Positions 19,326-45,936 of a DNA stretch of 64,000 nucleotides are shown here, piece after piece; within the stretch, counting starts at the first letter, position 1; every line of letters starts with the position of its first letter. The stretch covers positions 3,302 to 67,301 of the IMG/VR virus record IMGVR_UViG_3300028585_000003. One strand, written 5' to 3'. Position numbers and translations under genes: made by a program. Origin of the DNA: a virus. The notes beneath the pieces are model-generated. The model saw only the letters and a program-made list of their open reading frames with translations, ran no database searches and had not been told where the DNA came from.

Positions 19326-19337
19326 CCGCCGCGCCCG

Positions 19338-19784: not shown

Positions 19785-19804
19785 CTAGCCATCAAGGGCT
19801 GCGC

Positions 19805-20155: not shown

Positions 20156-20157
20156 GC

Positions 20158-21317: not shown

Positions 21318-21499
21318 TGCCGACTCTGTATGCCCTGGTGTGTATCGCCTGCGCGGCCGTTGCCGCCTTCAGCGCGATGATGCTGTGCTGGATGGGGCTG
21401 CTTGGAGAGCCGGGCAGCTGGCGGCGCACGCTCAAGCTGCTCGCCATGGTGGCGGCCTCGCTCGCGTTCGGCTTCATGGTGTACGGAGGGGAGCTGTAA
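21314..21499 (+). CDS. Small two-TM membrane protein
   Basis: Two hydrophobic stretches in 61 aa. Confidence 0.55.
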   Translation: MMPTLYALVCIACAAVAAFSAMMLCWMGLLGEPGSWRRTLKLLAMVAASLAFGFMVYGGEL

Positions 21500-22380
21500 T
21501 GGCGCGCCTGACCCCTGACCAGTGGACCGCCGCCCGTAAGCGCTGGGAAAGCACCGACGCATCCGTAACCTTCCAGACCGTCGCCGACGAGTTTGGGTGC
21601 AGCCGCGTCGCAGTGAGCAAGAAAGCCGAAAAGGATGGCTGGGTGAAGGGTGGGGGAGCGTTCCCGGCCGACCCGAAACCAGCACCGGCCCCGAAAGTTT
21701 CGACCCCTGCGAAAGTTACGCCGAAAGTTTCGGAGAAAGCACCGTCGCAACCAGAGTCAGAAGCCCCTGCAGGAGTCCCGGCACTGTCGCAGCGTGACCG
21801 GGAGCTGATGTTTGGCCGCCGTCCCGTTGGCCGCCCCAGTGAGTACCGCCCTGAGTTCGTGGCCGAGCTGATTGCCTACTTCGACATAGAGGTAACGAAG
21901 GTCGTTGACGTGGACGTGGTGGACAAGGACGGCACGACCCGAACCGAACAGAAGATCGTCCACAACACGTTCCCGACCCTGACGCGCTTCGCTTCCAAGA
22001 TCGGCGTTACCCGGCAGACCCTGCACGATTGGGCAACCGCGACGGACAAGGATGGAGCCCTGTTGCGCCCGGAATTTTCTTACGCATACGCACGCGCGCG
22101 GGACTCCCAGGAAAGTCTGCTGATCGAGGGCGGCATGGCTGGTGTATATGAGGCCCGCTTTGCCACCCTGGCAGTCAAAAATCTGGCCGGATGGCAGGAC
22201 AAGGTGGAAACCGTCGGCGAAGTCACGCACACGATGGCGAAGGTCGAGGAACTGGACGACTTCTACGCGGCCGCTGCTGCGCAGATGGAGGCCGGTCGCC
22301 TTGCCGTCATCGAGCGCAAGCGCCGCGCGGCCGGTGCGCAGACCGTCGAGGTGCGAGAGGCAGGCAATGGCGGCAAGTAA
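21499..22380 (+). CDS. Terminase small subunit (PacA-like position)
   Basis: N-terminal HTH, GRPSEY, PTLTRFA-IGVTRQTLHDW; directly upstream of large subunit. Confidence 0.8.
   Translation: MARLTPDQWTAARKRWESTDASVTFQTVADEFGCSRVAVSKKAEKDGWVKGGGAFPADPKPAPAPKVSTPAKVTPKVSEKAPSQPESEAPAGVPALSQRDRELMFGRRPVGRPSEYRPEFVAELIAYFDIEVTKVVDVDVVDKDGTTRTEQKIVHNTFPTLTRFASKIGVTRQTLHDWATATDKDGALLRPEFSYAYARARDSQESLLIEGGMAGVYEARFATLAVKNLAGWQDKVETVGEVTHTMAKVEELDDFYAAAAAQMEAGRLAVIERKRRAAGAQTVEVREAGNGGK
21692..21732. repeat. Three CGAAAGTTWCG quasi-palindromes inside small terminase gene; pac candidate
   Basis: 11-mers at 21692, 21710, 21722. Confidence 0.4.
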
Positions 22381-23923
22381 GCGCTTTCTGGTGGACGACC
22401 CGCGCTGGCATGAGTTCGTCAAGCGCTATGCGTTCGACCTCCCCAGGTTCGCAATCGAGGTGTGCCGCATCGTCCCGACGCACCAGCAATGGGAAATGTT
22501 CGAGTCGGTGCAAGACCCCGGCTCGCGCACTTCCGTGTCATCCGGCCACGGCACCGGCAAGACGGCGGGCTACGGCATCATCGCCCTGTGGCACCTCCTT
22601 TGCTACAAGAACAGCAACACGATCCTGTCCGCGCCGAAGCTGACCACCGTTTCGGACGGTGTGTGGAAGGAATTCGCCGACCTGAAGGGCAAGATCAAGA
22701 ACGGCCCGCACGGCTGGATTGACGACTACTACGAGGTGGCCGCCCAGCGCGTGTACGTGAAGGGCTTCAAGCTGAATTGGTGGGTGGTCGCCAAGACCGC
22801 GCCGCGCGGCTCGCCTGAGAATCTGGCTGGTGCCCACCGCGACTGGCTCCTGTTCCTGGTCGATGAGGCGTCGGGCGTCCCTGATGACAACTTCGGCGTC
22901 ATTACGGGCGCGCTGACCGACAAGCGCAACCGCATGTGCATTGCGTCGCAGCCTACCCGCTCGTCGGGCTTCTTCTACGACACGCACCATACCCTGTGCA
23001 TCGCCGAGGGCGGCGCATGGAACAACCTGGTATTCAGCTCGGCCGACTCGCCCATCGTGTCCGAGGAATTCATCGCCGAGAAGAAGAAGCAGTACACGAA
23101 AGAGGAATTCGCAATCAAGGTGCTCGGCCAGTTCGCCGAAATGTCCAGCAAGTACCTGCTGTCCGCTCGCGAGGTGCAGGCGTGCGTGGGGCTGGTCGCG
23201 GTGCGCCCGGACGAGGATTACGGCTGGCTCCTGCCGGTGGACGTGGGCGGCGGCGGCTACCGCGACAAATCCGTGGTGCTGGCGCTGCGCGTCATCGGCG
23301 AAGGCGAGTATGGCGACAATGCGCGCCGCGCCCAGCTCGTCAAGGTGCCGGTGTGCTCGAACGATCAGGACGTGTCGGACCTTCCCGGCGTCATCATTAA
23401 GGAATCGGGCGAGCGCAACGGTTCGATGGCCCTGGTGGACGCGGGCGGTATCGGCCTGGGCGTCATCAAGCAGCTCGAAAAGGCCGACTTTCAGAACTTC
23501 CGCAAGGTGCAATGGGGCATCCCCAACTTTCGCAAAGAATACAAGGACCGCTACACGAACCAGCGCGCCCAGGCCATGTGCGGCATTGCCCGCGCGGTGC
23601 AGGAGGGCCGGTTCGGCATCGACCCGGACATTGATCCGGCATTCGTCAAGCAGCTGGTGCGCGAGGCTTCCCGCATCCCCTATCACTACGACGAGAAAGC
23701 CCGCCGCTACATCGCCAAGAAAGAGGATATGAAGAAAGACGGCATCCCGTCGCCGGATATTTGGGATAGCTGTTCGTTCACGTTCCTTGAGGACGCCTAC
23801 TACAACCAAGCAGGCGAGGCAGCAAACGACGACGGCGGCGACGCCAAAGCACACGCCCGCGCACGCCTCATGGCGACGATGGGCCTCAACCCCGACGGTA
23901 CACCTATGGACAAAGCAGCATGA
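22367..23923 (+). CDS. pacB: Terminase large subunit, P1 PacB-like
   Basis: DPRW start, SGHGTGKT Walker A, LAGAH, LVDEASGV Walker B, QPTRSSGFFYD, SPDIWD nuclease end. Confidence 0.85.
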   Translation: MAASKRFLVDDPRWHEFVKRYAFDLPRFAIEVCRIVPTHQQWEMFESVQDPGSRTSVSSGHGTGKTAGYGIIALWHLLCYKNSNTILSAPKLTTVSDGVWKEFADLKGKIKNGPHGWIDDYYEVAAQRVYVKGFKLNWWVVAKTAPRGSPENLAGAHRDWLLFLVDEASGVPDDNFGVITGALTDKRNRMCIASQPTRSSGFFYDTHHTLCIAEGGAWNNLVFSSADSPIVSEEFIAEKKKQYTKEEFAIKVLGQFAEMSSKYLLSAREVQACVGLVAVRPDEDYGWLLPVDVGGGGYRDKSVVLALRVIGEGEYGDNARRAQLVKVPVCSNDQDVSDLPGVIIKESGERNGSMALVDAGGIGLGVIKQLEKADFQNFRKVQWGIPNFRKEYKDRYTNQRAQAMCGIARAVQEGRFGIDPDIDPAFVKQLVREASRIPYHYDEKARRYIAKKEDMKKDGIPSPDIWDSCSFTFLEDAYYNQAGEAANDDGGDAKAHARARLMATMGLNPDGTPMDKAA

Positions 23924-24270
23924 CCGACAACACCATCCCGGCCGACCTGATCCCGTTCGCGCCTTACTTCCGATCCGACTTCCTGCCCTGGCTGGCGTCG
24001 AACGACACGATTTACCGGCAATTCGAGAAGCAGACCCTTGAGCTGATCGAGGCGGGCTGGGAGCACTTCTCGGCCCGCACCATCGTGGAGGAAATTCGCC
24101 ACTACACGCGGCTGCGCGAGGGCGGGCAGTGCTCGTTCAAGGTCAACGGAAACATGGCCCCGGACCTTGCGCGCGTGTTCGTGATCCGGCACCCGGCGCA
24201 CGCGCACCTGTGGGAGTACCGGCGCGCGGATTCTGGCGCGTTCCTGGCGGCCGTCAAGAAGGTGGCATAG
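23920..24270 (+). CDS. Hypothetical phage protein
   Basis: SARTIVEEIR...FKVNGN; overlap coupling. Confidence 0.6.
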   Translation: MTDNTIPADLIPFAPYFRSDFLPWLASNDTIYRQFEKQTLELIEAGWEHFSARTIVEEIRHYTRLREGGQCSFKVNGNMAPDLARVFVIRHPAHAHLWEYRRADSGAFLAAVKKVA

Positions 24271-24271
24271 C

Positions 24272-24553
24272 ATGGCGCAGACACCAGAGCAGCGGCGCGA
24301 ATACCGGCGCGCCTACTACATTGCGAACCGCGAGCGCTTGCGAGCCCAGGCAAAGGCGCGCCGGGAAGCAAATCTGTTGGCGGTGCGTGAGAGCACGCGC
24401 AAGTCGGTTGCCATCCACTACGTCGGCCACCGCGAAGCCATTCTGGCGACGAAGAAGGAGCGATACGCCAACGACCCGGCCATGCGAGAGCGTATGAAGG
24501 CAAACGCCCGCCGTCGCCACGCGAAGTTAAAGGCCCAGCGGGAGGCGGCATGA
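24272..24553 (+). CDS. Basic helical hypothetical protein
   Basis: Arg-rich ORF in operon. Confidence 0.5.
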   Translation: MAQTPEQRREYRRAYYIANRERLRAQAKARREANLLAVRESTRKSVAIHYVGHREAILATKKERYANDPAMRERMKANARRRHAKLKAQREAA

Positions 24554-24834
24554 GGGACGTTCTCATCATCGGCGCAGGCTCGGACCTGTGCCCGGAAATC
24601 CTGGCGCTCCTGGCCGAGTATCGTGGCGGCGTCACGGTGCTGGCCGCCGAGCGCACGGAACCGGCCCCGCTCGATGCGTCGCTGTTCATCCGGCAACTGG
24701 TCGAGGCGACGACGGCCCCGCCGATCCCGTACCCGGCATTCCCCGTCTACCTGGGCAAGCGCTGGCCGCGTCGCGTCGCTTACCGCTGCGGCCAGCGCCA
24801 GCGTGAGCGCCGCAGCAAGGCGGGCAAGCCATGA
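24550..24834 (+). CDS. Hypothetical protein
   Basis: ATGA overlap coupling. Confidence 0.5.
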   Translation: MRDVLIIGAGSDLCPEILALLAEYRGGVTVLAAERTEPAPLDASLFIRQLVEATTAPPIPYPAFPVYLGKRWPRRVAYRCGQRQRERRSKAGKP

Positions 24835-24905
24835 CGCCGCGATGGGTCAACATGCTGGCGCTGTTCCTGGCGCTGGCGATGAATCCGCACTTTCCGCTGA
24901 TGTGA
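24831..24905 (+). CDS. 24-aa hydrophobic peptide MTPRWVNMLALFLALAMNPHFPLM
   Basis: ATGA overlap with upstream stop; below ORF-track size cutoff. Confidence 0.3.
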   Translation: MTPRWVNMLALFLALAMNPHFPLM

Positions 24906-25024
24906 CCGGAATCGAACGCATCCGTACACCCCGCCGAAGCCCCGACCGAAACCAAGCCTAACAGCTTTCGGACAGGGCAATGTTTCCGTACAATGATTGC
25001 GGACAGAAAAACAGGAGAAAGACC

Positions 25025-25291
25025 ATGCAGGACGTGAAAGAGGGCAGCGCCGCCGCCCAGGTGATCGAGGGCGCGCGCCGCAAGCCGGTGCTGATGATGA
25101 ACCAGTGGGACATTGCCTACTTCGAGCGGGCCGGGGTCGATCTGTCCGGCTACGACGTGCGCCAGCCGCAGCGCATACCAGTGCCGCCGCCAGCGCCGCG
25201 CGTGCTAACCGGCCAGCCGCAAGGCCCGGCACGCCAGCGCACCGGCCGCGAGCTGCGCCGTGCTGCGGCAAGGGGTCGCCGGGCGGTATGA
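25025..25291 (+). CDS. Hypothetical protein
   Basis: AGGAGA RBS before ATG 25025. Confidence 0.55.
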   Translation: MQDVKEGSAAAQVIEGARRKPVLMMNQWDIAYFERAGVDLSGYDVRQPQRIPVPPPAPRVLTGQPQGPARQRTGRELRRAAARGRRAV

Positions 25292-25336
25292 TTCGCCTGG
25301 GAGTAGCCCATGAGGTCGCCGGGTGCGGCCGGTACG

Positions 25337-25369
25337 AAGCCTGATTATCGCGAGATAGTCGGGCTTTTT
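25337..25369 (+). terminator. Intrinsic terminator ending rightward operon
   Basis: AAGCCTGATTATC-GCGA-GATAGTCGGGCTT plus T tract. Confidence 0.7.
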
Positions 25370-25438
25370 GCTTTTGAGGCGATTAGAAGCGTTTTGAGGC
25401 GTTCGGCCCGCTGGGTGAGGAAAGTATCGGGAGAGCGT

Positions 25439-25462
25439 AAAAAAGCCCGCTGGGCGCGGGCT
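25439..25462 (-). terminator. Intrinsic terminator ending leftward accessory operon
   Basis: AGCCCGC stem plus T6 on minus strand. Confidence 0.7.
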
Positions 25463-25481
25463 GGTGAGGTTGGCGGGCCGG

Positions 25482-25883
25482 TTATCGCTTGCCCAGGTCG
25501 TTGCGTGGGTAGATCAAAACCTTCGTGTCAATGTCGGCGCACTCATCGTCAAGGCAATGGCGGCTGACCATTCGCATTCCCTTGGTAAGCCAGATCAGCG
25601 CGGCATCCCGAGCGCGCGGCGCAGTACGTGTTCCGTGCCTGCGAAAATACGCCTTGTCCACCCGCGTGTGCTTGTAGCTGTAGAGGCGGCCTACTTCGGC
25701 AAGATCAATCAACAGGTCGAGGTCGTTAGGCGCTTGACTGCCCTTCACAGTCGAGCCGAATACCCAAATGCGTTTGATGCGGACGGCTTCGCGGCCGCAA
25801 AGGGGTGTAGCCAGCAGCCCATTCACGGCGTTGACCCGGCGCGCAACCTCATGGGCGTAGCGCAGGGCGGTTGTCAGTTGCAT
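25482..25883 (-). CDS. Minimal nucleotidyltransferase (Pol-beta superfamily)
   Basis: IWVFGSTVKG...PNDLDLLI (GS-x-DxD) signature. Confidence 0.75.
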   Translation of the reverse strand: MQLTTALRYAHEVARRVNAVNGLLATPLCGREAVRIKRIWVFGSTVKGSQAPNDLDLLIDLAEVGRLYSYKHTRVDKAYFRRHGTRTAPRARDAALIWLTKGMRMVSRHCLDDECADIDTKVLIYPRNDLGKR

Positions 25884-25890
25884 CCGGCCC

Positions 25891-26481
25891 TCATGCCCTG
25901 CCTGCATCGTAGGCAAGGTGCATCACGTTCGATAGATCGACCTCGCGGCAGTCATAGTGCCCGATCAGCGGGTGATGCAGGTTGTACGGGGCGTCCTTGT
26001 CGTTCGCATCGGTGAAGCCCAGCGGCGCGAGCGTCGCCAGCTTGCCGCGTTTCGCTTCCAGGGCGTCGCGCGCTTCGAGGCGAGCGGCTAGGGCTCGCTC
26101 GGCCTCGTCGGTGCGCGTCGTCGCCTGGGGGTCGCGCTTGCTCCATTCGGCGGCCAGCTCAAAGCGGTTCATGCCCAGCAGCGGCCGCACGCGCTCGATC
26201 ATGGCGCGCACGACGCCCCACGTCACCAGCTCGGCCCGGCCGTGGATGCCGAGGCACAGTTTCACGACCAGCCCCAGCAAAAACGCCTCGGGCACGTCTT
26301 TGTCGTGCAGCCGTGCCATCGGGGCGATTATGTCGCGTGCCGGGTTGCTCTCCATGTTTTCGAGAACGGCGGCGACGTGCGCGCCGGGCGGGTGCGGCAC
26401 ATTGCGCATGAAGGCTTCGCGTTCTTCGGCGGTGATGGCGGCCTGAATTGCGAGCAGGGTATGGGTTCGGAGGTCGGTCAT
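25891..26481 (-). CDS. Hypothetical protein
   Basis: 196-aa ORF, operon context. Confidence 0.55.
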   Translation of the reverse strand: MTDLRTHTLLAIQAAITAEEREAFMRNVPHPPGAHVAAVLENMESNPARDIIAPMARLHDKDVPEAFLLGLVVKLCLGIHGRAELVTWGVVRAMIERVRPLLGMNRFELAAEWSKRDPQATTRTDEAERALAARLEARDALEAKRGKLATLAPLGFTDANDKDAPYNLHHPLIGHYDCREVDLSNVMHLAYDAGRA

Positions 26482-26503
26482 GTTGGTTTTTCTTTGGTGG
26501 CGG

Positions 26504-26770
26504 TCAGCCCGCGCAACTGTCGATGTTGAAATTGGTTCGGACGACGCGCAGGACAGACCCGGCGCGCTGGTGCAGCTCCCCGGCGTCCAGTTGCAGGCGC
26601 GGGTTCTTCGCTTCCCAGGCGTCGGCTACCGGCTTGTCGTAGAACGTCAGATCGTTGTCGCCGACGGTGTAGGCGTTCATGCGCGGCGACGGGCAGCGGC
26701 TAATCACGGCTTCCAGCTCGTCCAGCCATGCGGATTCGGCCTTGGTCAGTTTCTTAGCCATGGTGGGCAC
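26504..26770 (-). CDS. Hypothetical protein
   Basis: 88-aa ORF, operon context. Confidence 0.55.
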   Translation of the reverse strand: MPTMAKKLTKAESAWLDELEAVISRCPSPRMNAYTVGDNDLTFYDKPVADAWEAKNPRLQLDAGELHQRAGSVLRVVRTNFNIDSCAG

Positions 26771-27032
26771 CTCGCGCCAGCGCCAGGGTGAAGATGCGCT
26801 TGTTGCGGTTGATGGTGCCGGGGCGGTCGGTGATGAGGCCGGAATCGCGCAGCTTGTTGATGTGGTCGCGCACGGCGTCTTCGCTCAACTGGGTAGTCTT
26901 GAGCAGCGCCGGGACCGTCGGCCAGCACTCGCCGCGCTCGTCGGCGAGGTCGGCCAGGACGATCAGCACCAGCTTGGATGCCGCGCTTGGCGCTTCGGTG
27001 CGCAGCGCCCATTGGAGTGCGTGCAGGCTCAC
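26754..27032 (-). CDS. HTH protein (replication-protein-like wHTH, stand-alone)
   Basis: KLVLIVLADLADERGECWPTVPALLKTTQLSEDAVRDHINKL; GTG start overlapping upstream stop. Confidence 0.65.
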   Translation of the reverse strand: MSLHALQWALRTEAPSAASKLVLIVLADLADERGECWPTVPALLKTTQLSEDAVRDHINKLRDSGLITDRPGTINRNKRIFTLALARGAHHG

Positions 27033-27295
27033 GCTGGATCGCTTTCCGGCACCAACGCCTCGACCTTCCCGGCCGTAGTGATCTTCATGTACATGCCGCC
27101 GCACTCGGGGCACTGCGCCATCGTCGTCCAGCGCCCGCCGCTGGTGTTGTCGCGGCTTTCCAGGGTAGCGCCGCAGCACGGCACTACGTAGGGCAGCAGC
27201 GTGACGCCTTTCGCGCGCAGGCGCTCGTTGTATTCGTCGCTCTGGCGTTTCAGGTCGGCCAGTTGCGCCGGGTCGATCTTGGATGTGGTCATCAT
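27029..27295 (-). CDS. Small Zn-ribbon protein
   Basis: PCCGA...CPECGG. Confidence 0.6.
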   Translation of the reverse strand: MMTTSKIDPAQLADLKRQSDEYNERLRAKGVTLLPYVVPCCGATLESRDNTSGGRWTTMAQCPECGGMYMKITTAGKVEALVPESDPA

Positions 27296-27340
27296 CGTCC
27301 TTGTGTTCGCGCCGCGCCCGATGCGCAGCTAGTGATTCGG

Positions 27341-27370
27341 ATTGTATGCGCTCAAAATGTGGCGGGTCAA
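27341..27370 (-). promoter_or_regulatory. sigma70 promoter with TGAGCGCA spacer motif
   Basis: TTGACC-18-TACAAT. Confidence 0.7.
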
Positions 27371-27391
27371 GCGGAATATGCAGCAGGCAAC

Positions 27392-27415
27392 AAAAAGCCC
27401 GGTCGGTGCCGGGCT
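27392..27415 (-). terminator. Intrinsic terminator
   Basis: AGCCCGG stem plus T5 on minus strand. Confidence 0.65.
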
Positions 27416-27426
27416 GGTGCTGCTGG

Positions 27427-27966
27427 TCAGCGACGCCGTGACTTGGCGCGCAGCTTGTCCAGCTCGTACTGTTCGCGCTCATCGGGGCGAAGCGGCGCTT
27501 CCAGGGCCGCCAGCACTGCCGCGCGCAGCGCTTCCATGCCGCCACGGTCGCGCATGTGTCGGAACCGCTCGAACTGGGCGCGCAGCGGCACCATGGAGCC
27601 CTCGATTTCGCTGTTTTTCTTGTCGTCCGCTTCCATCTTGCGCGCCCGGTCGGCCACCTCGGCTGCGCCGTCGAGCGCTTCCCATGCAATCTGGTCGCCA
27701 CCGTCCGGCCAGCGGCGCACGAACTTGAGGTTCGCGGAGAGCCCGGCCGCCTGCGTTTCGCTGAAACTCGCGCCGGAATAGACGCCGCCGACGCTGCGGT
27801 GCGCCTTGCGGTCGAACATGAACAGGCGCTCGTCCATCAGCGTGCCGTCGTCGGCAATGGCGCGCACGGAAAAGGCGAGCTTTCCGTTGATAAGGTGGCG
27901 GCGGCCGCAGTAAACGAATTCGCGCGGCGTCAGGACTGGTTCGGTGGGTGGTGGTGTCGTGGTCAT
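27427..27966 (-). CDS. Hypothetical protein
   Basis: 179-aa ORF with coiled-coil C-terminus. Confidence 0.55.
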   Translation of the reverse strand: MTTTPPPTEPVLTPREFVYCGRRHLINGKLAFSVRAIADDGTLMDERLFMFDRKAHRSVGGVYSGASFSETQAAGLSANLKFVRRWPDGGDQIAWEALDGAAEVADRARKMEADDKKNSEIEGSMVPLRAQFERFRHMRDRGGMEALRAAVLAALEAPLRPDEREQYELDKLRAKSRRR

Positions 27967-27981
27967 GGTGATGAGGTGAGG

Positions 27982-28575
27982 TTAAACAGGGACCGGCGAG
28001 GGGCGCGCGCCCTTGATGCGCAGGATGGTTTGCCGGGACACGCGCATATCGCGCGCGATTTCGGAGATTCCCACGCCCGCATCCAGCAGGCCGTGGACAA
28101 GCTGCTTGTCGTTGTCGCCCAGCGCTGGCGGGCGGCCGAACTTCTTTCCCTCTTTCTTCGCGCGGGCAAGGCCAGCATTGGTGCGCTCGATGAGTAAGTC
28201 CCGCTCGAACTCGGCCACGGCCGCGATAACGCCCATGGTCATCTTGCCTGCGGCGCTGGTCAGGTCTATGTTGCCCAAGGCGAGGCAGGACACGCGCACG
28301 CCGGATGCTTCCAGGCGCTCGACGGTGGCGCGCAAGTCCATCGCGTTGCGGCCCAGGCGGTCCAGCTTAGTCACCACAAGCACGTCATCGCGCTCCAGGC
28401 GGTCGAGCAGCTTGACGAAGCCGGGGCGCTCGTTCGCGGCGCTGGACCCGCTGATAGTCTCGGTGATGATGCGGCGCTCGTCCAGGGCGAAGCCTGCGGC
28501 CTTGATTTCGCCGATCTGGTTGTCGGTGGTCTGGTCGCCGGTCGATACGCGGCAGTAGGCAAATACTCGGCTCAT
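27982..28575 (-). CDS. Small serine recombinase (PinR/PinQ-like resolvase/invertase)
   Basis: YCRVST catalytic Ser, [25 protein letters not shown]-terminal HTH. Confidence 0.92.
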
Positions 28576-28862
28576 TTTTCAACAATCTCCCATATGTCCA
28601 GCCAAGCGCTATCCCAGGCTTCGACTTTACGAATTAGCCCTTTCTTGCCGAGATAGCGGAAGGCCGCGACGGCTTGATCGAGCGTGTAAATTTTGCGCTC
28701 CGTGCCCGCTGGCACGGCCAGCAGGTTCATCCACGAAAGAGCCATCACTGGCGTAATGCGAGGAATCCCCATGCCATCGGTGCGCGTGATGACGAATGCC
28801 GCGCTGCCGACGGCGGTTTGCCGACGGACGCGCTTGTTGGCGAACTGTTGCAGGGCGCTCAT
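28572..28862 (-). CDS. Hypothetical protein
   Basis: Overlap coupling. Confidence 0.5.
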
Positions 28863-29869
28863 CCCTTGATCGCCTTGGTCACGTTGACCGGGCTCATCCT
28901 GACCTCGGCAGGCCCGAGATACAGCTTGTAGCTGCCTTCGCCCAGCGCCTTGTCCGTCTCAGTGTACGAGCGCGTCAACAGGCTCAAGCCGGTGCTGCTA
29001 ATCGTCAGTTCGGCCACATGCTCGGGCTGGTTGGCGCTTCCCTCGGCAGGCTGGGCGGCGATCAGCGCTTTTGCGCGCAATACGATGCAATCGGGCTTGT
29101 GGTCTTCGTGGTCGTCCAGATCGGCGTCGCAGCCGTAGCAAAACAAGCGCTCTTGATTGTCCGTGCCGGTGTAGTGGTCGGCTACGGCTTGCACGAACTC
29201 ACGCACGTTCTCTGGCAGGGCCGGGGCGGCTTGCCCTGCACGGTAGACTTGCATGGCGTTCTGCTCCTTCGCGCTGTCGAACAGCGGGCAGAAGCTGGCG
29301 TGCGTGATGCTGTTGCCGTGGCACTTGTGGCACTTCGGATGCCCTGCGCTGGCAGGTGCAGGGGTGGCGTTGATGTTCACATTTCCAGATTTGTTGAGCA
29401 CAACGTCGCTTGACGTGCATTCGTTGAACACATCGCCACCAGCAGCACGGCGGGATGCGGCGAGGCCGACTGCGACCGCTTCATCGTACCCAGCGCCGAC
29501 TCGGGATGCTTCGTGGAATGCCTGTTTGAACTTCGCCACATCTGCAATATCCGCTACCTGCGGGGATGGGGTGGCGAGAGCCTTCAATTCGTCGGCGCGT
29601 GCCAGGACCAGATCGGCGGCAGCGTGGCGCGCGTCGCGGTGGCCGGTAGCGTAGCCGGTTGCATAGTCATCGCCCGGTTCTGCCTGATAGACGGGAGGCA
29701 GGTTCATAATCGCAGTCGGGATCGTGAGCACGTCAGCAGCAGGGATGGTAGGCTTCACGCCCTGCATCGCATCTGCCACTTCGATAGCTGCATTGCGCCC
29801 GATAGGCTGGCCGTGGTCGCACAGTACGGCTGCGCCTGCGGTGATCTGGTCGTTCGTGAGGGTGGTCAT
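28859..29869 (-). CDS. Mosaic hypothetical phage protein with Cys/His clusters
   Basis: CHKCHG-HASFC and CYGC-HKPDC. Confidence 0.55.
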   Translation of the reverse strand: MTTLTNDQITAGAAVLCDHGQPIGRNAAIEVADAMQGVKPTIPAADVLTIPTAIMNLPPVYQAEPGDDYATGYATGHRDARHAAADLVLARADELKALATPSPQVADIADVAKFKQAFHEASRVGAGYDEAVAVGLAASRRAAGGDVFNECTSSDVVLNKSGNVNINATPAPASAGHPKCHKCHGNSITHASFCPLFDSAKEQNAMQVYRAGQAAPALPENVREFVQAVADHYTGTDNQERLFCYGCDADLDDHEDHKPDCIVLRAKALIAAQPAEGSANQPEHVAELTISSTGLSLLTRSYTETDKALGEGSYKLYLGPAEVRMSPVNVTKAIKG

Positions 29870-29880
29870 GGGCATTCCGG

Positions 29881-30015
29881 TCAAAAGTAAGTTTCGTCAG
29901 GCTGGGCGGCGTGCTCCCATGGAGCGCCCAGCCCGTCGTGGGTGTCGAACTCGGGGCCGGTGGTGTTCGGCCATTCGAGCGCGCCGCCACTAGCAGGGGT
30001 AGGGGTGGTGCTCAT
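29881..30015 (-). CDS. 44-aa acidic peptide ending PDETYF
   Basis: ATG overlapping upstream TGA; not in ORF track. Confidence 0.4.
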   Translation of the reverse strand: MSTTPTPASGGALEWPNTTGPEFDTHDGLGAPWEHAAQPDETYF

Positions 30016-33244: not shown

Positions 33245-33287
33245 TAGGAAAACTCGGCCAGGGCGTCCAGGCGGCACCTTTTACAGT
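33245..33287 (+). promoter_or_regulatory. Candidate late promoter TAGGAAAA-N29-TACAGT
   Basis: Same geometry as four other sites ahead of virion operons. Confidence 0.6.
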
Positions 33288-33390
33288 GGCTTCACCAACG
33301 GCGGAACTCCGTGGGCACCGAGCGCAAAGCCGTGCAGAACATCGCACGGTAGGAAGGCGGATTTGCGCACCCTTCATGGTTATGGAGAAC

Positions 33391-33439
33391 TCGACAATAT
33401 TTTTTCTATTGTCGATTTCCCTTTAAAATCAACGGGTTA
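33391..33439. promoter_or_regulatory. Inverted repeat TCGACAATA-N7-TATTGTCGA and IHF consensus AATCAACGGGTTA next to dif-like site
   Basis: IR 33391-33415; WATCAANNNNTTR match 33427-33439. Confidence 0.5.
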
Positions 33440-33465
33440 GGTGCATAATCTATCTTATGTTAAAT
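33438..33465 (+). other. dif-like XerC/XerD recombination site
   Basis: TAGGTGCATAA-TCTATC-TTATGTTAAAT: XerD arm identical to canonical dif, XerC arm keeps GCATAA, 6-bp centre. Confidence 0.85.
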
Positions 33466-38820: not shown

Positions 38821-39210
38821 TTAAATCTTTCGGTAAAGCAGCTTCATCAGCGGGTCGGCCTTGAGGCGGTGGCCCTGCCCTTTCCGGCGTCTGTACTTCG
38901 CGCCGGACTTGCGCATATCGGCCAGATAGTCCTCATACAGCCCGGCGTCCTTCAAGCCCTGCCGGTATCTCGCTGCTAGTTGGGCTTGTGTCCAGGGTTT
39001 CGGGCGGCGCGCATCCCGGCCAGGGCCGCGCACGTACACGGCCACATAGTCCCTGCCGTTGCGATTCCATTGGCCCACGCGCAGCTCTCCCGCCTTGCGC
39101 AGCCGGGTGATCCACTTGTGAAGCGTTGAGGTCGAGCGAATGTCGAGCTGGGCCAGCAGCTCGCGCGACGTGGCGGGCACCAGCTCCAGGATGCGCTCGC
39201 CGGTTGTCAC
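38821..39210 (-). CDS. wHTH DNA-binding-like protein
   Basis: TSRELLAQLDIRSTSTLHKWITRLRKAGELRV; GTG start at overlap. Confidence 0.5.
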   Translation of the reverse strand: MTTGERILELVPATSRELLAQLDIRSTSTLHKWITRLRKAGELRVGQWNRNGRDYVAVYVRGPGRDARRPKPWTQAQLAARYRQGLKDAGLYEDYLADMRKSGAKYRRRKGQGHRLKADPLMKLLYRKI

Positions 39211-39599
39211 GGCAGGCAGTACGGCGAGCCGCCGCAGTTCATGTGGTCGTAGCGGTCGAATTCTTCGGCCAACCCGTACCATTGCCGCTCGCTTTCGCAG
39301 TGGCGACAGGTGTACGTCAGGGTTCCGTCGGGGTCGCGATACAGGCCGTCGGGCAGCTCGTCGTCTTCATCGTCCTGGTCGCGCATCCATTCCGCGTGTT
39401 CGGCCGGATTGCAGTGCTCGCATGGCTGGCGCGCGGTGGTCGGGTCGTGGCCGTCGGCGTCCATATCGCTCATGTAGCCGTCGGTACACATCAGGTCGGG
39501 ATAGCTGGTGGTGCCGCTGTAGCCCTGCCGGAAGCAGCCATCAGGGATTGGCACCGAGCGGACGTGTCGGCGGTACTGGCGGCGCTGGTAGGCGTTCAA
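39207..39599 (-). CDS. Acidic Cys-rich small protein
   Basis: CEHC, CRHC, CGGSPYCLP; DQDDEDDE tract. Confidence 0.6.
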   Translation of the reverse strand: MNAYQRRQYRRHVRSVPIPDGCFRQGYSGTTSYPDLMCTDGYMSDMDADGHDPTTARQPCEHCNPAEHAEWMRDQDDEDDELPDGLYRDPDGTLTYTCRHCESERQWYGLAEEFDRYDHMNCGGSPYCLP

Positions 39600-40003
39600 T
39601 CCGGCTCTCCTGCATCGTCAGCACGTTCGCAGGCAAAGCCGATGGCGCTTTCCACCTTGCCGCCCATCGTGTCGCCGCTGAATTCGTCGTGCCGGGTGCC
39701 GTCCTCGTCGTACAGGGCCACGTCACCGCAGCCGCGCTCGACCTCGACGCGCAGTTCCCAGCCTTCGGGCAGCTCGCCAGCAGCGCGTTCGAGGGCCGCG
39801 CCCAGCGCCATATCGCGCTTGACGGTAGGCGTGGCAACGATCAGGCCGTCACGGCGTACTTGCGCGATCAGGTCCGCGAGGCGCGCCTGTTTGGCCGCGC
39901 CAGCTTCGCCGTTCAGCAGCACGTCCAGCTCGCGCACCATCGCGCGATGGCTCGCCAGAATTTCTTCGTACACCGCAGGAGTCGTAGACAAGTCCATGCT
40001 CAT
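39596..40003 (-). CDS. Hypothetical phage protein
   Basis: SHRAMVRELDVLLNGE and AAGELPEGWEL modules. Confidence 0.6.
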   Translation of the reverse strand: MSMDLSTTPAVYEEILASHRAMVRELDVLLNGEAGAAKQARLADLIAQVRRDGLIVATPTVKRDMALGAALERAAGELPEGWELRVEVERGCGDVALYDEDGTRHDEFSGDTMGGKVESAIGFACERADDAGEPD

Positions 40004-40098
40004 TTGCGCTTATTGGCCCAGCAGATGCCGAGGGTGATGATGACGATTGCGGCGATGTAGGCGAGGTCAATGACCTCTTTTCCGGTCAGTTGCGGCAT
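40000..40098 (-). CDS. 32-aa single-TM peptide
   Basis: LAYIAAIVIITLGICW plus basic tail; AGGAGA RBS; not in ORF track. Confidence 0.45.
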   Translation of the reverse strand: MPQLTGKEVIDLAYIAAIVIITLGICWANKRK

Positions 40099-40217
40099 GG
40101 TTCTTCTCCTGCGGCCGGTGCGGCCTGCTGTGGTGCGTTGGCGGCGTGCCAGTCGGCGACGCTCGGGGATTCTTCGTATGGCAGCGGGATCGGCCGCGCT
40201 TTAATGTCTTCGTCCAT
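40086..40217 (-). CDS. Small acidic peptide
   Basis: AAGGAA RBS before MDEDIK. Confidence 0.4.
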   Translation of the reverse strand: MDEDIKARPIPLPYEESPSVADWHAANAPQQAAPAAGEEPCRN

Positions 40218-40230
40218 GGGTTCCTTGAGG

Positions 40231-40479
40231 TTAGAAGTAGCCGCCTCGGGTGTCGTGGGCCGTGTCGGCGCGCTGGCGGCATTCGATATTGCAAAAGTGA
40301 AGCGTGACGGGCTCACTGGGGGCGCGGCCGCTGTAGCGGCCGTAGCGGCTCGATGAGGCGGTTCCGTAAATCGGGCGCTTGACCGACGTTTCCGGGTCCA
40401 CCGGCTTGAAACAGCCGCCACAAGTCGGCGCTTTTGCTGGTGCTGGCGCTGTCGCCTGCACGCTGGTGCTGCTAGTCAT
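40231..40479 (-). CDS. Small Zn-finger protein
   Basis: CGGC...FCNIEC; AGGAA RBS. Confidence 0.55.
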   Translation of the reverse strand: MTSSTSVQATAPAPAKAPTCGGCFKPVDPETSVKRPIYGTASSSRYGRYSGRAPSEPVTLHFCNIECRQRADTAHDTRGGYF

Positions 40480-40513
40480 TGCAGTTCCTATATTTCTACT
40501 GGTAAATATAGGT

Positions 40514-40542
40514 ATGCTAATTGAAATATGGGTTAGCGGCAA
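40514..40542 (-). promoter_or_regulatory. sigma70 promoter overlapped by CI-type operator (ATAGGTATGCTAAT, 40508-40521)
   Basis: TTGCCG-17-TAGCAT. Confidence 0.55.
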
Positions 40543-40564
40543 TAGTGAAGCCTATAAATGGGCG

Positions 40565-40607
40565 TAGGAAAAGCCCGAAAAATGGCTTTGTGACCGGCCA
40601 GTAACAT
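40565..40607 (+). promoter_or_regulatory. Candidate late promoter TAGGAAAA-N29-TAACAT
   Basis: Immediately upstream of baseplate operon. Confidence 0.65.
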
Positions 40608-40613
40608 CGCGGA

Positions 40614-40907
40614 ATGGACAAAATTAACGCTACCGACTTGCAGGGCATGGTGACGCACTGGGTTTCGACGCCGCCGAATGGCTACCTCGGCAGCGGCTAC
40701 GGTGCGGATACGCTCGCGATGCTGCAAAACCCGATGAAAACCGGCATTGCCGATGGCTACCTGAAAAAACTGCGCGCCGACGTGCCCTTGGTGGGCGCGT
40801 TGCCGCCTGCGGCCGTCAATATCTACGCGCAGGACACTTCCCCGGACAAGCGGGAAATCTTCATCGACGTATCCGGCCAGATGGTCGCCCTTGGGAGTAA
40901 CACGTAA
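40614..40907 (+). CDS. Baseplate wedge protein (gp25/gpW-like, P1 gp26-like)
   Basis: HWVSTPPNGYLGSGYG; precedes baseplate J-like gene. Confidence 0.6.
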   Translation: MDKINATDLQGMVTHWVSTPPNGYLGSGYGADTLAMLQNPMKTGIADGYLKKLRADVPLVGALPPAAVNIYAQDTSPDKREIFIDVSGQMVALGSNT

Positions 40908-42340
40908 TGGCATATAGCCGCGAAGATTTCATGGCCGCGATGGTGGCTGAAATTTCAAACTACCCGCTGGCGGCCCAGTTCTACCAGGCAGGCGACCCGC
41001 GCATGCTCGCGCAGCTCGGCGCGAATGCCGCCATGCTCGCGCTGGTATCGGTTCAGGTGGACAACGCCAGCATGGAGCCGTTCATCAAGGCGCGCGACAC
41101 GACCGTGCTGGCCGACGCGACATTGAAGGGCATTTTGCCGTTCGCGCGCCCTGCCCGCGTCACCTTGGCGGTCGAAAACGTCGATCCGGTCAACCGCTTG
41201 ACCATTTCCATTGGCCGCCGCCTGATCGGCGAGCAGGGCCGCGTGTACGTCGCGGAAACCGGCGTCGTGGTCGAGCCGGGCAAGTCCGGCACGGTCGCGG
41301 CGCGCCAGATGACGACGCGCACCTTCCGGCATACGGTGGCCGGGTCCGTTCCCTTCTATGCTGTCCAGATTCCGCAGCCCATGGACGACGAGCTGGAAAT
41401 CAGCGGCGTGCTGGTGTCCATCGGCGGCGTGTCCTACCCGTACACGCCCGAGTTCTCGAACCTCGCCGCAAATGAACCCGGCTTCGTGCTGGAAACCGAC
41501 GAGCAGCGCCGTCTGTTCGCCAAATTCGGGTGGAAAGACACGTTCGGCGTGCAGCCCGCCAACGGTACGGCCATCGACTTCATCATTGAAGAAACCTACG
41601 GCGTGTCCCGGCTCACGGCCGCGCAGCCGTTCACGTTCGAGAGCGCCACCCTGCCCGCTGACCAGAGCGCGAAAATCACGCTGGCATCCGTCGTATTCGT
41701 CGGCGCGGACCCGGTGGACATTCAAACCATGCGCGAATGGGCGCAGTATCCGAGCACCTACGATGCGTCGGCCGTCTACCTGGGCAACTTCGATTTTCTG
41801 GTGCGCCGCAACCTGCCGAATATCCGCTTCCTGTCGATCTGGAATGAGCAGATCGAGGAATCAGTGCGCGGGGCCAGCGTCAGGAACATCAACAGCCTGT
41901 TCGTGGCCGCCGCCATCGACGGCGCAACGCCGCAGTGGATCAAATCGACCATCGCCAACATCATCACCAGCGCGGACGACTCCTACCGCATCCAGTTTGT
42001 GCCGCTGGTCGAAGTGCCAGTGGCGATCACGGTCAGCGCCCAGGTGTCTATCGTCCACGACCCGGACGACGTAAAGGCCAAGATCAAGTCGAAGCTGCTG
42101 GAGCTGTACGGCCGCGATGCTGCCGCAGTCAAGCAGGGCATGATGAAGCCGAACCACAAGCGCATCTACGACGGCCTGCGCGACGCCATCCCGGCGCTCC
42201 AGGACGCGGCCAGCGATATGCAAATCTCGATCCCGGCACCGGGCGCGATCCTGCCCGAGCACTACCGCTACATGACCGAGGCATCCATGGATATCACGGT
42301 CACGCAGTCCACCTACAACGCCGGTTTGTTCAGCCACTAA
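40907..42340 (+). CDS. bplA: Baseplate J-like protein (P1 BplA-like)
   Basis: EPFIKARDTTVLADA, FGVQPANG, YDASAVYLGNFDFLVR. Confidence 0.65.
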   Translation: MAYSREDFMAAMVAEISNYPLAAQFYQAGDPRMLAQLGANAAMLALVSVQVDNASMEPFIKARDTTVLADATLKGILPFARPARVTLAVENVDPVNRLTISIGRRLIGEQGRVYVAETGVVVEPGKSGTVAARQMTTRTFRHTVAGSVPFYAVQIPQPMDDELEISGVLVSIGGVSYPYTPEFSNLAANEPGFVLETDEQRRLFAKFGWKDTFGVQPANGTAIDFIIEETYGVSRLTAAQPFTFESATLPADQSAKITLASVVFVGADPVDIQTMREWAQYPSTYDASAVYLGNFDFLVRRNLPNIRFLSIWNEQIEESVRGASVRNINSLFVAAAIDGATPQWIKSTIANIITSADDSYRIQFVPLVEVPVAITVSAQVSIVHDPDDVKAKIKSKLLELYGRDAAAVKQGMMKPNHKRIYDGLRDAIPALQDAASDMQISIPAPGAILPEHYRYMTEASMDITVTQSTYNAGLFSH

Positions 42341-42343
42341 GCT

Positions 42344-43780
42344 ATGTCCAACCTGATTCCAGTCCCAGCGCCAGCGCTTCAACCGCTGGCGCACAGCCAC
42401 GAAGCGACCCAGCTCGAAGCCGAAATGAAGGCGGCCTTCATGGCCGTGTTCGAGAAGATGATTCGCCCGCGTGAGCGCAACCTGAACCTGTACGGCATGG
42501 CGCACCTGGGCGGCGACGACCTGATGGCGAGCGCCCTGAAATCCGACGGCATCGCCATGGTCAAGCGCAGCTCGACCCGGATGCAGTTCTTGATGAAGGC
42601 CAGCCGCTCGCGCAATCCACGGCGCGGCCTGCTGTTCATCAAAAAGTACCTGCAAGCGATCTGGCCCAACATCTGGCAAGCCGAGCCGCTTTGGCTGCGC
42701 ATCGACAACACGGCGAACTACCCGGCCCAGGCGATCCCGCTCAATTCCGCTGTGCCTATCTTCGGCAGCGTTACCGGCGACTATACGGACGGTAGCGGCC
42801 TGCCGGTCCTGAATCTGACCGATGAGGCCGGGCGCTTCCCGCTCAGCCCGATTGAGCGCGTCAACTACGTCTCCAACAACTCGTCCATGCAGTTTGCAGC
42901 GGTGGGCCTGCCCGGTGACGATCAGGCGATGGGCAACTGGGGCTACTGGCCGGGCGGCTGGTGGTATCGCCAGGGCGACGCCGGGACGCGGTTTCAGATC
43001 GTCGCCAAGGGCGAGGCCGACGGCATGCCCTACATCGACGTGCGGTTCACCGGCAGGCCATGGCAGGGCGGGCGCACGGCGGGCTCGATCTACTTCGCCG
43101 GGCCTTCCGAAGTGACGATGGCGCGCGGCCAGCAGTGGACCGGCAGCGCGTATGTCTCGCTCATCGCCGGATCACTGGCAAACGTCGCCAGCATCGGCAT
43201 TGGCTACGACGAAAACAGCGCTTCGACCAACCTGGCGCGTGGGCTGGGGCAGGCGTTCACACCGACGGCCACGATGCAGCGCTACAGCATGACGCGCGAG
43301 AACTTCGATGCCGCTGGAGCGCACTTCGCTAACCACACGTTGCAATGGGCGTGCCTGGAAGCGGATAAGCCGGTCGATTTCACGCTGCGCATCGCCCTGC
43401 CGCAGATGGAGAACGGCAAGCTGGCGACGGCCCCGATCCGCACGGCGGGCACGTTCGGGCAGATCGTCACGCGCCCTGCCGATTACGCATTGAACGAGCA
43501 GACCGGCATTGCCACCTTCCGCGCCGCGCTGGGCGTGCCGCCGACGTGCGTTCGCTATTTCCTGACCGGCCGCATTCGCATCACCCTGCCGGTTTCTTCC
43601 GATAACGGCCTGGGCCTGGACGAGATAGCAAAAGCGTTCCGATCCACCCTGCCCGCACGCCTTATGCTGGAGTTCAAGCTGGGCATGGAGTTCGATACCA
43701 GCGGCCCGGATGGCCTGAAAATCGCCAACGGCGCGGCCGTCGTCATGCCCATCATGGCAACCGGCACCCTGCAACTTTAA
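42344..43780 (+). CDS. Baseplate wedge (gpI-like) protein with large central inserted beta domain
   Basis: RRGLLFIKKYLQAIWP N-part and YFLTGRIRI...LPARL C-part flank a fibre-like insert. Confidence 0.55.
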   Translation: MSNLIPVPAPALQPLAHSHEATQLEAEMKAAFMAVFEKMIRPRERNLNLYGMAHLGGDDLMASALKSDGIAMVKRSSTRMQFLMKASRSRNPRRGLLFIKKYLQAIWPNIWQAEPLWLRIDNTANYPAQAIPLNSAVPIFGSVTGDYTDGSGLPVLNLTDEAGRFPLSPIERVNYVSNNSSMQFAAVGLPGDDQAMGNWGYWPGGWWYRQGDAGTRFQIVAKGEADGMPYIDVRFTGRPWQGGRTAGSIYFAGPSEVTMARGQQWTGSAYVSLIAGSLANVASIGIGYDENSASTNLARGLGQAFTPTATMQRYSMTRENFDAAGAHFANHTLQWACLEADKPVDFTLRIALPQMENGKLATAPIRTAGTFGQIVTRPADYALNEQTGIATFRAALGVPPTCVRYFLTGRIRITLPVSSDNGLGLDEIAKAFRSTLPARLMLEFKLGMEFDTSGPDGLKIANGAAVVMPIMATGTLQL

Positions 43781-43789
43781 GAGAAGAAA

Positions 43790-44641
43790 ATGCCCGACCA
43801 GAACGACAACATCATCCGTTACAACGTCCATGAGCGCGGCCGCCACCATCGCGGCCAGGACCGGCATTTCAACCTGCCTGCGCTGGTGGCGATGGTCAAT
43901 TCTCCTGCCGTGCAGGAGCGCGTGAAGAACCGCGATATGCTGGGCTACTACGGCCACTGGCAGCGCATGCGCTTCGGCATGCTGCCGCCTGAAAACGTCA
44001 TCGTGGGCGGCAAGGTCATCCACATCGAACCGGCCACCGTCACGACCTATTTGCGCGCCGAGCCGGACGGCACCATCGAGCACCGCACCGAATTCCTCGA
44101 AACGCAATCGGGCAAGGTGGCGCGCCGCCTGGAAAAGAGCAAGGCGGGCGGGTTCTCCAGCGCCATCGACGCCACCTCGCGAAACGGCCTGTATGTGCCC
44201 AGTTCGTTCAACGGCTTCGACTACGTGCTGGAGCCGAACTACACGACCAACCGCGCATACGTGTTCGACAGCGCCCAGCCGGTCGAAGAAGGCTCGATCT
44301 TCGATTGCGTGATGGCCGACCACTACCAGAGCGCGGAGCGCATGGCGGCCCTGTACGACAGCCTGCAAGGCGATCACATGATGGCGATGCAGACCATTGC
44401 CCGCCTCATGGAAGAAAACGAGGCGCTGATGTCGGCGGCCGTCACCGGCCGAGCGCTGTTCGATTCCGTCGGCGCGCCTGCGATTGCGCCCCGGATGGTG
44501 TCGAAGAAGCCGACGGAGCACTTCGCGCGCATGAAAGCCATGTTCAAGAGCGCCGACCTGGCCCCGCTGGACAGGCTGCCGGACGAGCGCACCGATATGG
44601 TGCTCGACCATGTGCGCAGCCATTACGGAGCGCCACGATGA
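43790..44641 (+). CDS. Prohead (head-processing) protease, P1 Pro-like
   Basis: GYYGHWQR, GGFSSA, GFDYVLEPNY. Confidence 0.65.
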   Translation: MPDQNDNIIRYNVHERGRHHRGQDRHFNLPALVAMVNSPAVQERVKNRDMLGYYGHWQRMRFGMLPPENVIVGGKVIHIEPATVTTYLRAEPDGTIEHRTEFLETQSGKVARRLEKSKAGGFSSAIDATSRNGLYVPSSFNGFDYVLEPNYTTNRAYVFDSAQPVEEGSIFDCVMADHYQSAERMAALYDSLQGDHMMAMQTIARLMEENEALMSAAVTGRALFDSVGAPAIAPRMVSKKPTEHFARMKAMFKSADLAPLDRLPDERTDMVLDHVRSHYGAPR

Positions 44642-45411
44642 GCATGCGAAAGCCAATTCAGACGGGCTTCGGCGCGTACATGGCCCAGTTCTACGGCCAG
44701 CTGGTCGCCGACACGCCCGCGATGGCCGAATTCATCAAGCGCGGCCTTGCAAAGTCAGTGGTATGGGCACCCGGCCGCATGATCGACAGCGTGGAGGAAA
44801 TGCTGGCCGAGTGGCGCAAGAACGACAACTCGGGCGGGCCGAGCGATTCGTCCTACCTGCCCGTCATGCTGTGCGCCATGAGCAAGGACTTCATGCCCAC
44901 CATGGCCGACTGGAACGTGGCCGTGGGCACGTCGGTGGACGTGATGCACCCGGACGACCCGCACAAGCGCGCCTACAAGCTGCGCACGTCGGCGGGCGAA
45001 TACCGGGTCCAGGTCGCCATCGTCGCGCCCGAGGTGGAAACCGCGCATAGCATCGCCCTGCAATTTAGCTTGTGGGCGAATGGCGACGGCGGCCGCCGCT
45101 TCCAGTGCCGCCATATGTTCGGCGGCCTCGCGCACGATTTCTCGGCCGTCCTGGAGGAAATCGACCTGGGCGCGATTGACGCGCGCACCGACCAGAAGAA
45201 CCTCACGATCCTGACCGTGAACATGAACCTGCGCACGGTCATCCCGATCTTCCGCGCGCCCGGCCAGGACGAGGCGAACGACGGCAAGCCAGCGCCAGCG
45301 GGCTACCCTGTGGCGCTGGAGGTGAATATGTTTGACACGGTAAGCCTTAACCGCGCCCGCAATTCCCTGTCCCTGACGGATGATCGAGCCATGACGGAGT
45401 GGAACCCATGA
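44638..45411 (+). CDS. P1-like morphogenetic (tail completion-like) protein
   Basis: Conserved position; MLAEWRKND, LPVMLCAM. Confidence 0.5.
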   Translation: MSMRKPIQTGFGAYMAQFYGQLVADTPAMAEFIKRGLAKSVVWAPGRMIDSVEEMLAEWRKNDNSGGPSDSSYLPVMLCAMSKDFMPTMADWNVAVGTSVDVMHPDDPHKRAYKLRTSAGEYRVQVAIVAPEVETAHSIALQFSLWANGDGGRRFQCRHMFGGLAHDFSAVLEEIDLGAIDARTDQKNLTILTVNMNLRTVIPIFRAPGQDEANDGKPAPAGYPVALEVNMFDTVSLNRARNSLSLTDDRAMTEWNP

Positions 45412-45866: not shown

Positions 45867-45869
45867 CGG

Positions 45870-45912
45870 TAGGAAAACGACGGGATAGCCTGCCCAGGGC
45901 GCGCCTCAAAAT
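45870..45912 (+). promoter_or_regulatory. Candidate late promoter TAGGAAAA-N29-CAAAAT
   Basis: Upstream of second tail fibre gene. Confidence 0.6.
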
Positions 45913-45936
45913 AGGGCCACCTATTTTGAGGCCCAT

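Follow-up and report, generated by a model that had tools for sequence, protein, structure and literature searches.

The viral genome IMGVR_UViG_3300028585_000003 from IMG/VR (91,370 bp; G000 below) carries, in the middle of its phage genes, a single dif-like recombination site that is likely a working XerC/XerD, FtsK-guided multimer resolution site of a plasmid prophage, functionally replacing the Cre/loxP system of phage P1. The window analyzed here comprises bases 3302-67301 of the record (64,000 nucleotides), and positions in G000 are given in window coordinates. A sequence-only reading of this DNA had suggested that the element exploits the host XerCD recombinase for dimer resolution, for integration at the chromosomal dif, or for both. 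Conservation of the site, the absence of a tyrosine recombinase, partition genes, plasmid relatives and the polarity of FtsK-orienting polar sequences (KOPS) speak for dimer resolution, whereas integration at the chromosomal dif found no support: integrated copies are lacking, the intact site is bridged in metagenomes and the centre is other than TGTATA.

The site reads TAGGTGCATAA-TCTATC-TTATGTTAAAT, with imperfectly inverted 11-bp arms around a 6-bp centre and an XerD arm that agrees with the consensus at 11/11 positions. It lies at 33438-33465, exactly where the sequence-only reading had placed a 28-bp site with the XerD arm of canonical dif. Scored against the dif consensus it matches 17 of 19 specified positions, the runner-up place in the window reaching 14, and no second such site occurs in the window or in the whole record. 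At 63% GC and counting both strands, 0.0026 copies of the 11-bp XerD arm would be expected by chance, and 1.6e-6 copies of GCATAA-N6-TTATGTNAAAT at the same base composition; the site is no chance match. For comparison we used a canonical beta-proteobacterial dif, that of Ralstonia pickettii chromosome 1 (GCATAA-TGTATA-TTATGTTAAAT). Its XerD arm is identical to that of G000, the XerC arms agree in the inner GCATAA only, and the centre TCTATC differs from the canonical TGTATA. Phage genes do lie on both flanks, as had been read from the sequence, with a large terminase gene (22142-23923) on one side and a baseplate gene (40907-42340) on the other.

Five IMG/VR relatives (G001-G005) are collinear with G000, with terminase identities of 78-94%, and each contains one dif-like site and no more, located in the corresponding intergenic gap (Table 1). 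A first pattern search in these relatives missed the sites because the outer XerC arm varies. Across the family the XerD arm matches at 10-11 of 11 positions and the inner XerC GCATAA never changes, and variation is confined to the centre and the outer XerC arm; the XerC arms of G001 and G002 are textbook examples ending in TTCGCATAA. When seven sites were compared (G000-G004 and those of the plasmids pBVIE05 and pPRS08-11306, described below), their aligned sequences displayed the conservation pattern of a Xer site, which is unlike that of a symmetric operator or a promoter. Lack of conservation in related phages had been named beforehand as an observation that would count against the Xer interpretation; a syntenic site is present in all relatives. 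Beyond this family, a megablast search with 5 kb around the site gave no match in phage and plasmid collections, and the exact site pattern was not found in other viral contigs. A metagenome scan yielded one distant relative only (terminase 54%), and the 21 kb of it that were searched lack a dif-like site.

The element is a P1-like tailed phage (a myovirus) that probably lives as a plasmid. The ends of the record share a 127-bp overlap, indicating a circle of about 91.2 kb. The large terminase is of the PacB type (34% identical to P1 PacB), and further P1-type genes encode a DarB-like protein (2285 amino acids), a PmgG-like protein, and sheath and portal proteins, the sheath and portal genes lying outside the window elsewhere in the record; a baseplate protein is encoded as well. 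The phage is temperate, since it encodes a CI/LexA-type repressor. Along with the PacB-type terminase, Dar and a contractile tail, it shares with P1-like phage-plasmids the presence of partition and replication genes and of episomal relatives. A partition ATPase is encoded in every complete genome of the family, StbB in G000 and G001 and ParA in G002 and G004. The partition module has been exchanged within the family at the same locus, with the StbB type in the former pair and a ParA (AAA_31) type in the latter. We infer a Burkholderiales-like host.

The nearest relative from a cultured strain is pBVIE05 (CP000621.1), a circular plasmid of 88,096 bp from Burkholderia vietnamiensis G4. Its terminase is 65% identical to that of G000 and its virion genes are collinear (35-71% amino acid identity), although most of its genes are annotated as hypothetical proteins. 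It carries an RdgC-FtsK-gamma fusion, a resolvase, a repressor and a Rep3-type initiator, and has no tyrosine recombinase. A more distant relative, the circular plasmid pPRS08-11306 (CP018759.1) of Pseudomonas psychrotolerans, likewise has the RdgC-gamma fusion and no tyrosine recombinase, and its dif-like site reads ACTTCGCATAA-TACCGA-TTATGTTAAAG. In the 114-kb pPRS08-11306 record, KOPS positions recur in 94,243-114,250 with an offset of 94,242 bp; because of this repetition, the record seems to consist of a 94.2-kb unit whose first 20 kb are repeated at the end, as would result from terminal redundancy of a phage genome.

P1 resolves dimers with its own Cre/loxP, and this component of P1-like phage-plasmids is missing here. 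No tyrosine recombinase (PF00589) was detected in the whole G000 genome, including the part beyond the window, or in any of the six family records (G000-G005), whereas the P1 control gave 115 bits. The earlier statement that the window holds no Cre or integrase is thus true of tyrosine recombinases across the entire genome. It had overlooked a conserved small serine recombinase of 197 amino acids, encoded 5 kb from the dif-like site, and the phage is therefore not without a recombinase of its own. Searches around this gene gave no convincing res, gix-like or other inverted repeats. Among the other elements compared, a tyrosine recombinase without a dif-like site occurs in P1, three Pseudomonas plasmids and one Aeromonas plasmid, and one Xanthomonas phage and one Acinetobacter plasmid have neither.

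GGGNAGGG is the KOPS word that orients FtsK towards dif (PMC2533119). In five genomes of the family, 91 of 99 copies of this word point towards the site and 8 point away, and the site sits at the junction between the two polarities. The left arc of G000 contains one copy in the opposite orientation, at 17024; the right arc has none on the plus strand and runs past the end of the window around the circle to 5243, so that the polarities diverge between 5243 and 5911, just upstream of the stb operon. The gap holding the site is the best or a near-best convergence point, with rotations that do as well numbering 1/25, 3/17, 1/24, 3/20 and 1/13 in the five genomes, and the KOPS split at the antipode of the site is weak. 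GGGNAGGG is the commonest and most skewed of 42 words of equal composition, and an unbiased ranking of 40,374 words placed it 12th, the higher-ranked words being driven by codon usage. This convergence is an addition to the sequence-only reading.

Gene strand is a real confounder of word polarity and was first suspected as the cause, but a stratified test separated the two. GGGNAGGG still points to the site in 11 of 12 cases within genes transcribed towards the site and in 31 of 33 in intergenic DNA, where one third of all copies lie. The codon-driven skewed words reverse in such genes, where a fraction of only 0.2-0.4 points to the site, and show almost no preference between genes. The polarity of GGGNAGGG is independent of gene strand. 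A related word, GGNAGGGC, is as polar as GGGNAGGG in the five genomes (18/20 in the discordant genes and 23/23 in intergenic DNA), and this equal polarity hints at an extended motif, GGGNAGGGC, in the host group of these phages. In pPRS08-11306, five correctly oriented copies of GGGNAGGG lie within 2.7 kb on one side of its site, with almost all remaining copies oriented the other way. A plasmid of P. fluorescens DR133 (CP048608.1) also has two-arc polarity yet no dif-like site in the convergence region, and polarity alone is therefore no predictor of a site.

G000 additionally encodes RdgC fused to a full-length FtsK gamma domain, recognized by Pfam (RdgC, 339 bits; FtsK_gamma, 75.8 bits) and by NCBIfam. 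In E. coli FtsK, RQFRIGYNR (residues 1289-1297) is the minimal XerD-activating peptide, in which R1289 is critical (Keller 2016, PMC5052618). When we aligned the phage gamma domain to FtsK gamma structures (PDB 2VE8, 2J5P and 5DCF), its RHLRLGYNQ fell on this peptide with the equivalent of R1289 kept. Equivalents of the KOPS-reading residues N1296, R1300 and E1303 are kept as well (compared with Val 2008, PMC2533119). The fusion may read the phage's KOPS and act as a private XerD activator on a chromosome-like phage genome, serving dimer resolution, or fusion with and exit from host replicons that carry TCTATC sites, without septal FtsK. We think this rather unlikely; if true, it would be the tailed-phage counterpart of TLC's XafT. 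The DR133 plasmid encodes an RdgC-gamma fusion 2 kb from a tyrosine recombinase (52,501-56,116), with no dif-like site detected, and there the gamma domain may serve the neighboring recombinase.

Together these results suggest a model in which the host Xer system occupies the place of P1's Cre/loxP in this lineage. Homologous recombination would fuse two plasmid copies into a multimer, on which host FtsK would load at the closing septum and be steered to the site by the GGGNAGGG motifs of both arcs. We infer binding by XerC and XerD, catalysis and FtsK dependence: the FtsK gamma domain would switch on XerD at the site, XerC would complete the exchange, and the resulting monomers would be segregated by the StbB/ParA partition system. 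The phage RdgC-FtsK-gamma protein could add to or replace the FtsK signal, and the non-canonical centre would limit fusion with the dif of the host chromosome.

The site might instead be an attachment site like those of integrative mobile elements exploiting Xer (IMEX), such as CTX, TLC and the gonococcal genetic island (GGI), at which XerCD would reversibly insert the phage into a dif-like site of the host whose centre matches. The phage is indeed temperate, with its CI-like repressor, and has neither an integrase nor a tyrosine recombinase of its own. The exact 23-mer GCATAA-TCTATC-TTATGTNAAAT occurs in 54 species-representative bacterial genomes (L031-L084; about 0.1 expected by chance), spread over many proteobacterial genera including Cupriavidus, Ralstonia, Pantoea, vibrios and roseobacters and in some cases on plasmids or second chromosomes. 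Since it is found in soil beta-proteobacteria, possible matching partner sites for the phage exist. However, no phage genes lie within 8 kb of the 54 sites, and none of the 185,579 species genomes scanned for the terminase yielded a prophage relative. Related genomes split at the site were looked for, and no split site or integrated copy was found: contigs from four metagenome runs (three studies) bridge the intact site without joints or loose ends there, and within this limited sampling no form integrated at a host dif with dif-like junctions appeared. The TCTATC site is present in just 5/301 sampled Burkholderiaceae genomes, the centre varies within the phage family, and the partition and replication genes as well as the plasmid relatives point to an episome. 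We regard an IMEX-type attachment site as unlikely, although a minority role of the site in fusion with host replicons is possible; divergence of the centre is believed to keep replicons from fusing (PMC2533119).

It is also conceivable that XerCD bind the site but that the phage RdgC-FtsK-gamma protein, not host FtsK, activates them, for septum-independent resolution or for cointegrate formation and exchange with Xer-site replicons, like XafT of TLC. Its activating and KOPS-reading residues are kept, fusion and dif-like site occur together in G000, G001, G004, pBVIE05 and pPRS08-11306, and for recombination it is enough to tether a gamma domain to XerC or XerD (PMC5052618). We consider this very doubtful, as the KOPS polarity fits best a translocating motor, which RdgC-gamma lacks, and as fusion and site also occur apart, in G002 and in one further relative. 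Alternatively, the site could merely be the promoter or operator of the rightward operon of small membrane proteins, its likeness to dif being without function and dimers being resolved by the serine recombinase. A sigma-70-like promoter match does overlap the XerC arm, a start codon follows 22 bp after the site, which sits in a divergent regulatory gap, and the serine recombinase is conserved in all relatives. Against this, the asymmetric, Xer-type conservation reaches 11 bp past the -10 hexamer, whose distance from the -35 hexamer varies from 16 to 19, an identical 23-mer exists in unrelated bacterial replicons, KOPS converge on the site and no res site was found, making a promoter alone highly improbable.

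Several observations nonetheless weigh against an FtsK-guided resolution site. Within the site itself, position -7 of the G000 XerC arm is a T in place of the usually conserved canonical C, and the -10 hexamer of the promoter-like match overlaps the junction of the XerC arm and the centre. The dif-like site of pBVIE05, which also differs from G000 in its Rep3-type initiator, is degenerate (CTGTTCGATAA-TTGTAT-TTATGTCAAAT). The five genomes in which KOPS were counted are related, and the counts are not independent; the far switch point of the polarity was chosen by fitting to these same data, the two arcs differ in length (about 63 and 28 kb), and they do not diverge at the initiator/P-like replicon. 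In 14 elements, tyrosine recombinase and dif-like site exclude each other perfectly (Fisher p = 0.02), but significance is lost when the whole family is treated as a single lineage (p = 0.17). The conserved serine recombinase could be the real resolvase, or possibly a second resolvase beside the Xer site. Finally, the complete G002 genome has the site without a gamma domain, and one relative has the fusion together with a tyrosine recombinase and no dif-like site; the fusion is therefore not tightly coupled to the site and is plausibly a helper rather than a required part of the predicted system.

The bacterial copies of the 23-mer have features of their own. The XerC arm contains the canonical CGCATAA in all 54 loci except L052, L077 and L083. 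At 19 of the sites (L032, L035, L044, L052, L061, L062 and 13 more) a conserved tandem motif abuts the XerC arm at a distance of 5-6 bp. The motif consists of GGACATT...CTTAGC twice and ends in CTACA, with a divergent gene for a helix-turn-helix (HTH) protein behind it; it is transposon-end-like and has no Rfam match. This arrangement resembles the dif-targeting behavior reported for IS1202-family elements (PMC10132070). The 5/301 count also ruled out TCTATC as a general dif of Burkholderiaceae chromids.

The gap that holds the phage site measures about 350-460 bp, depending on which small leftward open reading frames are real, and is flanked by small leftward genes on one side and by rightward genes for small membrane proteins on the other. 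A six-genome alignment shows a conserved non-coding stretch on the XerC side (Table 1), containing a TAGGAAAA box, a conserved block of about 60 nt, a palindrome CTCGACAAT-N-ATTGTCGAG (33391-33415) and a AAAGCCTTTA-AATCAA block. The box and the 60-nt block (CAACGGCGGAACTC...AAGCCG; 33245-33390) are kept in all relatives and match no Rfam family. The RNA fold upstream of the site is unconvincing (z-score -1.7), and Rfam and tRNA scans of the window gave no matches. The promoter-like match, whose -35 to -10 spacing ranges from 16 to 19 among the relatives, may serve to express the small membrane-protein genes beginning at 33487. A -10 hexamer inside a Xer site just upstream of such genes recalls the Rcd promoter within cer, and by analogy dimer-dependent expression is conceivable. 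One kilobase from the site, 34481-34849 on the minus strand encodes an NAD-ligase domain Ia that stands alone (Pfam Nlig-Ia, 108 bits) and is conserved in all relatives.

Table 1. Features of the G000 window, by position, and dif-like sites of its relatives
Feature	Position	Strand	Details
StbB-family plasmid stability ATPase	4230..4937	-	NCBIfam NF041292, 279.9 bits (cut-off 200)
GGGNAGGG copies, left arc	5911..29997	+	5911, 8497, 11765, 11811, 16410, 21254, 29997; all pointing right to the site
ParB-like protein	6293..7222	-	phrog_1033 at 3e-59; HTH_ParB
RdgC fused to FtsK gamma domain	7240..8472	-	gamma domain residues 347-405 (nt 7258-7434); RHLRLGYNQ at residues 371-379
CI/LexA-type repressor (HTH and S24 peptidase)	11833..12519	-	marks the phage as temperate
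Replication initiator and lambda P-like helicase loader	15041..16772	+	initiator 15041-16000; loader 15918-16772
Small serine recombinase, resolvase/invertase type	27982..28575	-	197 amino acids; 72-97% conserved in all relatives
Conserved non-coding stretch, XerC side of site	33245..33437	+	six-genome alignment; candidate accessory or regulatory DNA
Sigma-70-like promoter match	33422..33449	+	TTTAAA-16-CATAAT; promoter/terminator scan
dif-like XerC/XerD site	33438..33465	+	XerC arm 33438-33448; centre TCTATC 33449-33454; XerD arm 33455-33465
GGGNAGGG copies, right arc	38873..64000	-	38873, 41149, 41649, 43647, 56690, 60849, 60995, 61000, 61345, 62673; all pointing left to the site
Site of G001			XerC arm CGTTCGCATAA; centre TCTATC; XerD arm TTATGTTAAAT
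Site of G002			XerC arm ACTTCGCATAA; centre TCTTTC; XerD arm TTATGTCAAAT
Site of G003			XerC arm CGGTTGCATAA; centre TCTATC; XerD arm TTATGTAAAAT
Site of G004 and G005 (near-identical here)			XerC arm ACCGCGCATAA; centre TTAGCA; XerD arm TTATGTAAAAT

Among known systems, the phage site resembles the dif sites of chromosomes and chromids (E. coli dif, Vibrio cholerae dif1 and dif2; PMC2533119) in its 28-bp layout, 6-bp centre, near-canonical XerD arm and converging GGGNAGGG motifs, and it shares a divergent centre with the dif of secondary replicons. Unlike a chromosomal dif, it lies on a 91-kb tailed-phage genome with unequal arcs and an extra, element-encoded gamma domain. With P1 the phage has in common the PacB-type terminase, DarB, PmgG, RdgC, a myovirus tail, a plasmid prophage and the presumed task of keeping the plasmid monomeric, but in place of Cre, or any tyrosine recombinase or lox site, it has a site for a host enzyme. 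The plasmid sites cer, psi and mwr are FtsK-independent and require accessory DNA of about 180 bp that is bound by PepA together with either ArgR or ArcA, and the centre of cer is 8 bp long. Resolution of plasmid multimers by host XerCD, as we propose here, and conserved DNA flanking the core on its XerC side are features shared with these sites, whereas the 6-bp centre and the KOPS of the phage argue for a dif-type rather than a cer/psi-type site. IMEX, and TLC with its XafT (PMC6744903, PMC9226527), are likewise phage-related and integrase-less, exploit XerCD and may bring their own XerD activator. They are, however, small filamentous phages or islands integrated at dif, whereas here the virion is tailed and no integrated form was found, and the candidate activator, unlike XafT, is a true FtsK gamma domain. 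A literature search, which was not exhaustive, found no report of Xer/dif use by a tailed phage or phage-plasmid. The proposed mechanism is already known from chromosomes and plasmids; a tailed phage-plasmid that employs it, with KOPS spread over the packaged genome and a phage-borne gamma domain, was absent from the literature searched.

Phage-plasmids are now regarded as frequent vehicles of gene transfer between phages and plasmids, and how they are maintained as monomers has been little studied outside the P1/Cre and N15/TelN models. The family described here raises the questions of whether FtsK acts on phage-plasmids, whether phage-borne gamma domains, which are widespread and unexplained, activate XerD, and whether the centre of the site controls replicon fusion. 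These questions can be addressed in existing strains such as B. vietnamiensis G4 with pBVIE05. The family suggests that the dimer-resolution system of the host chromosome can replace Cre/loxP, with the motifs that guide FtsK written across a packaged phage genome.
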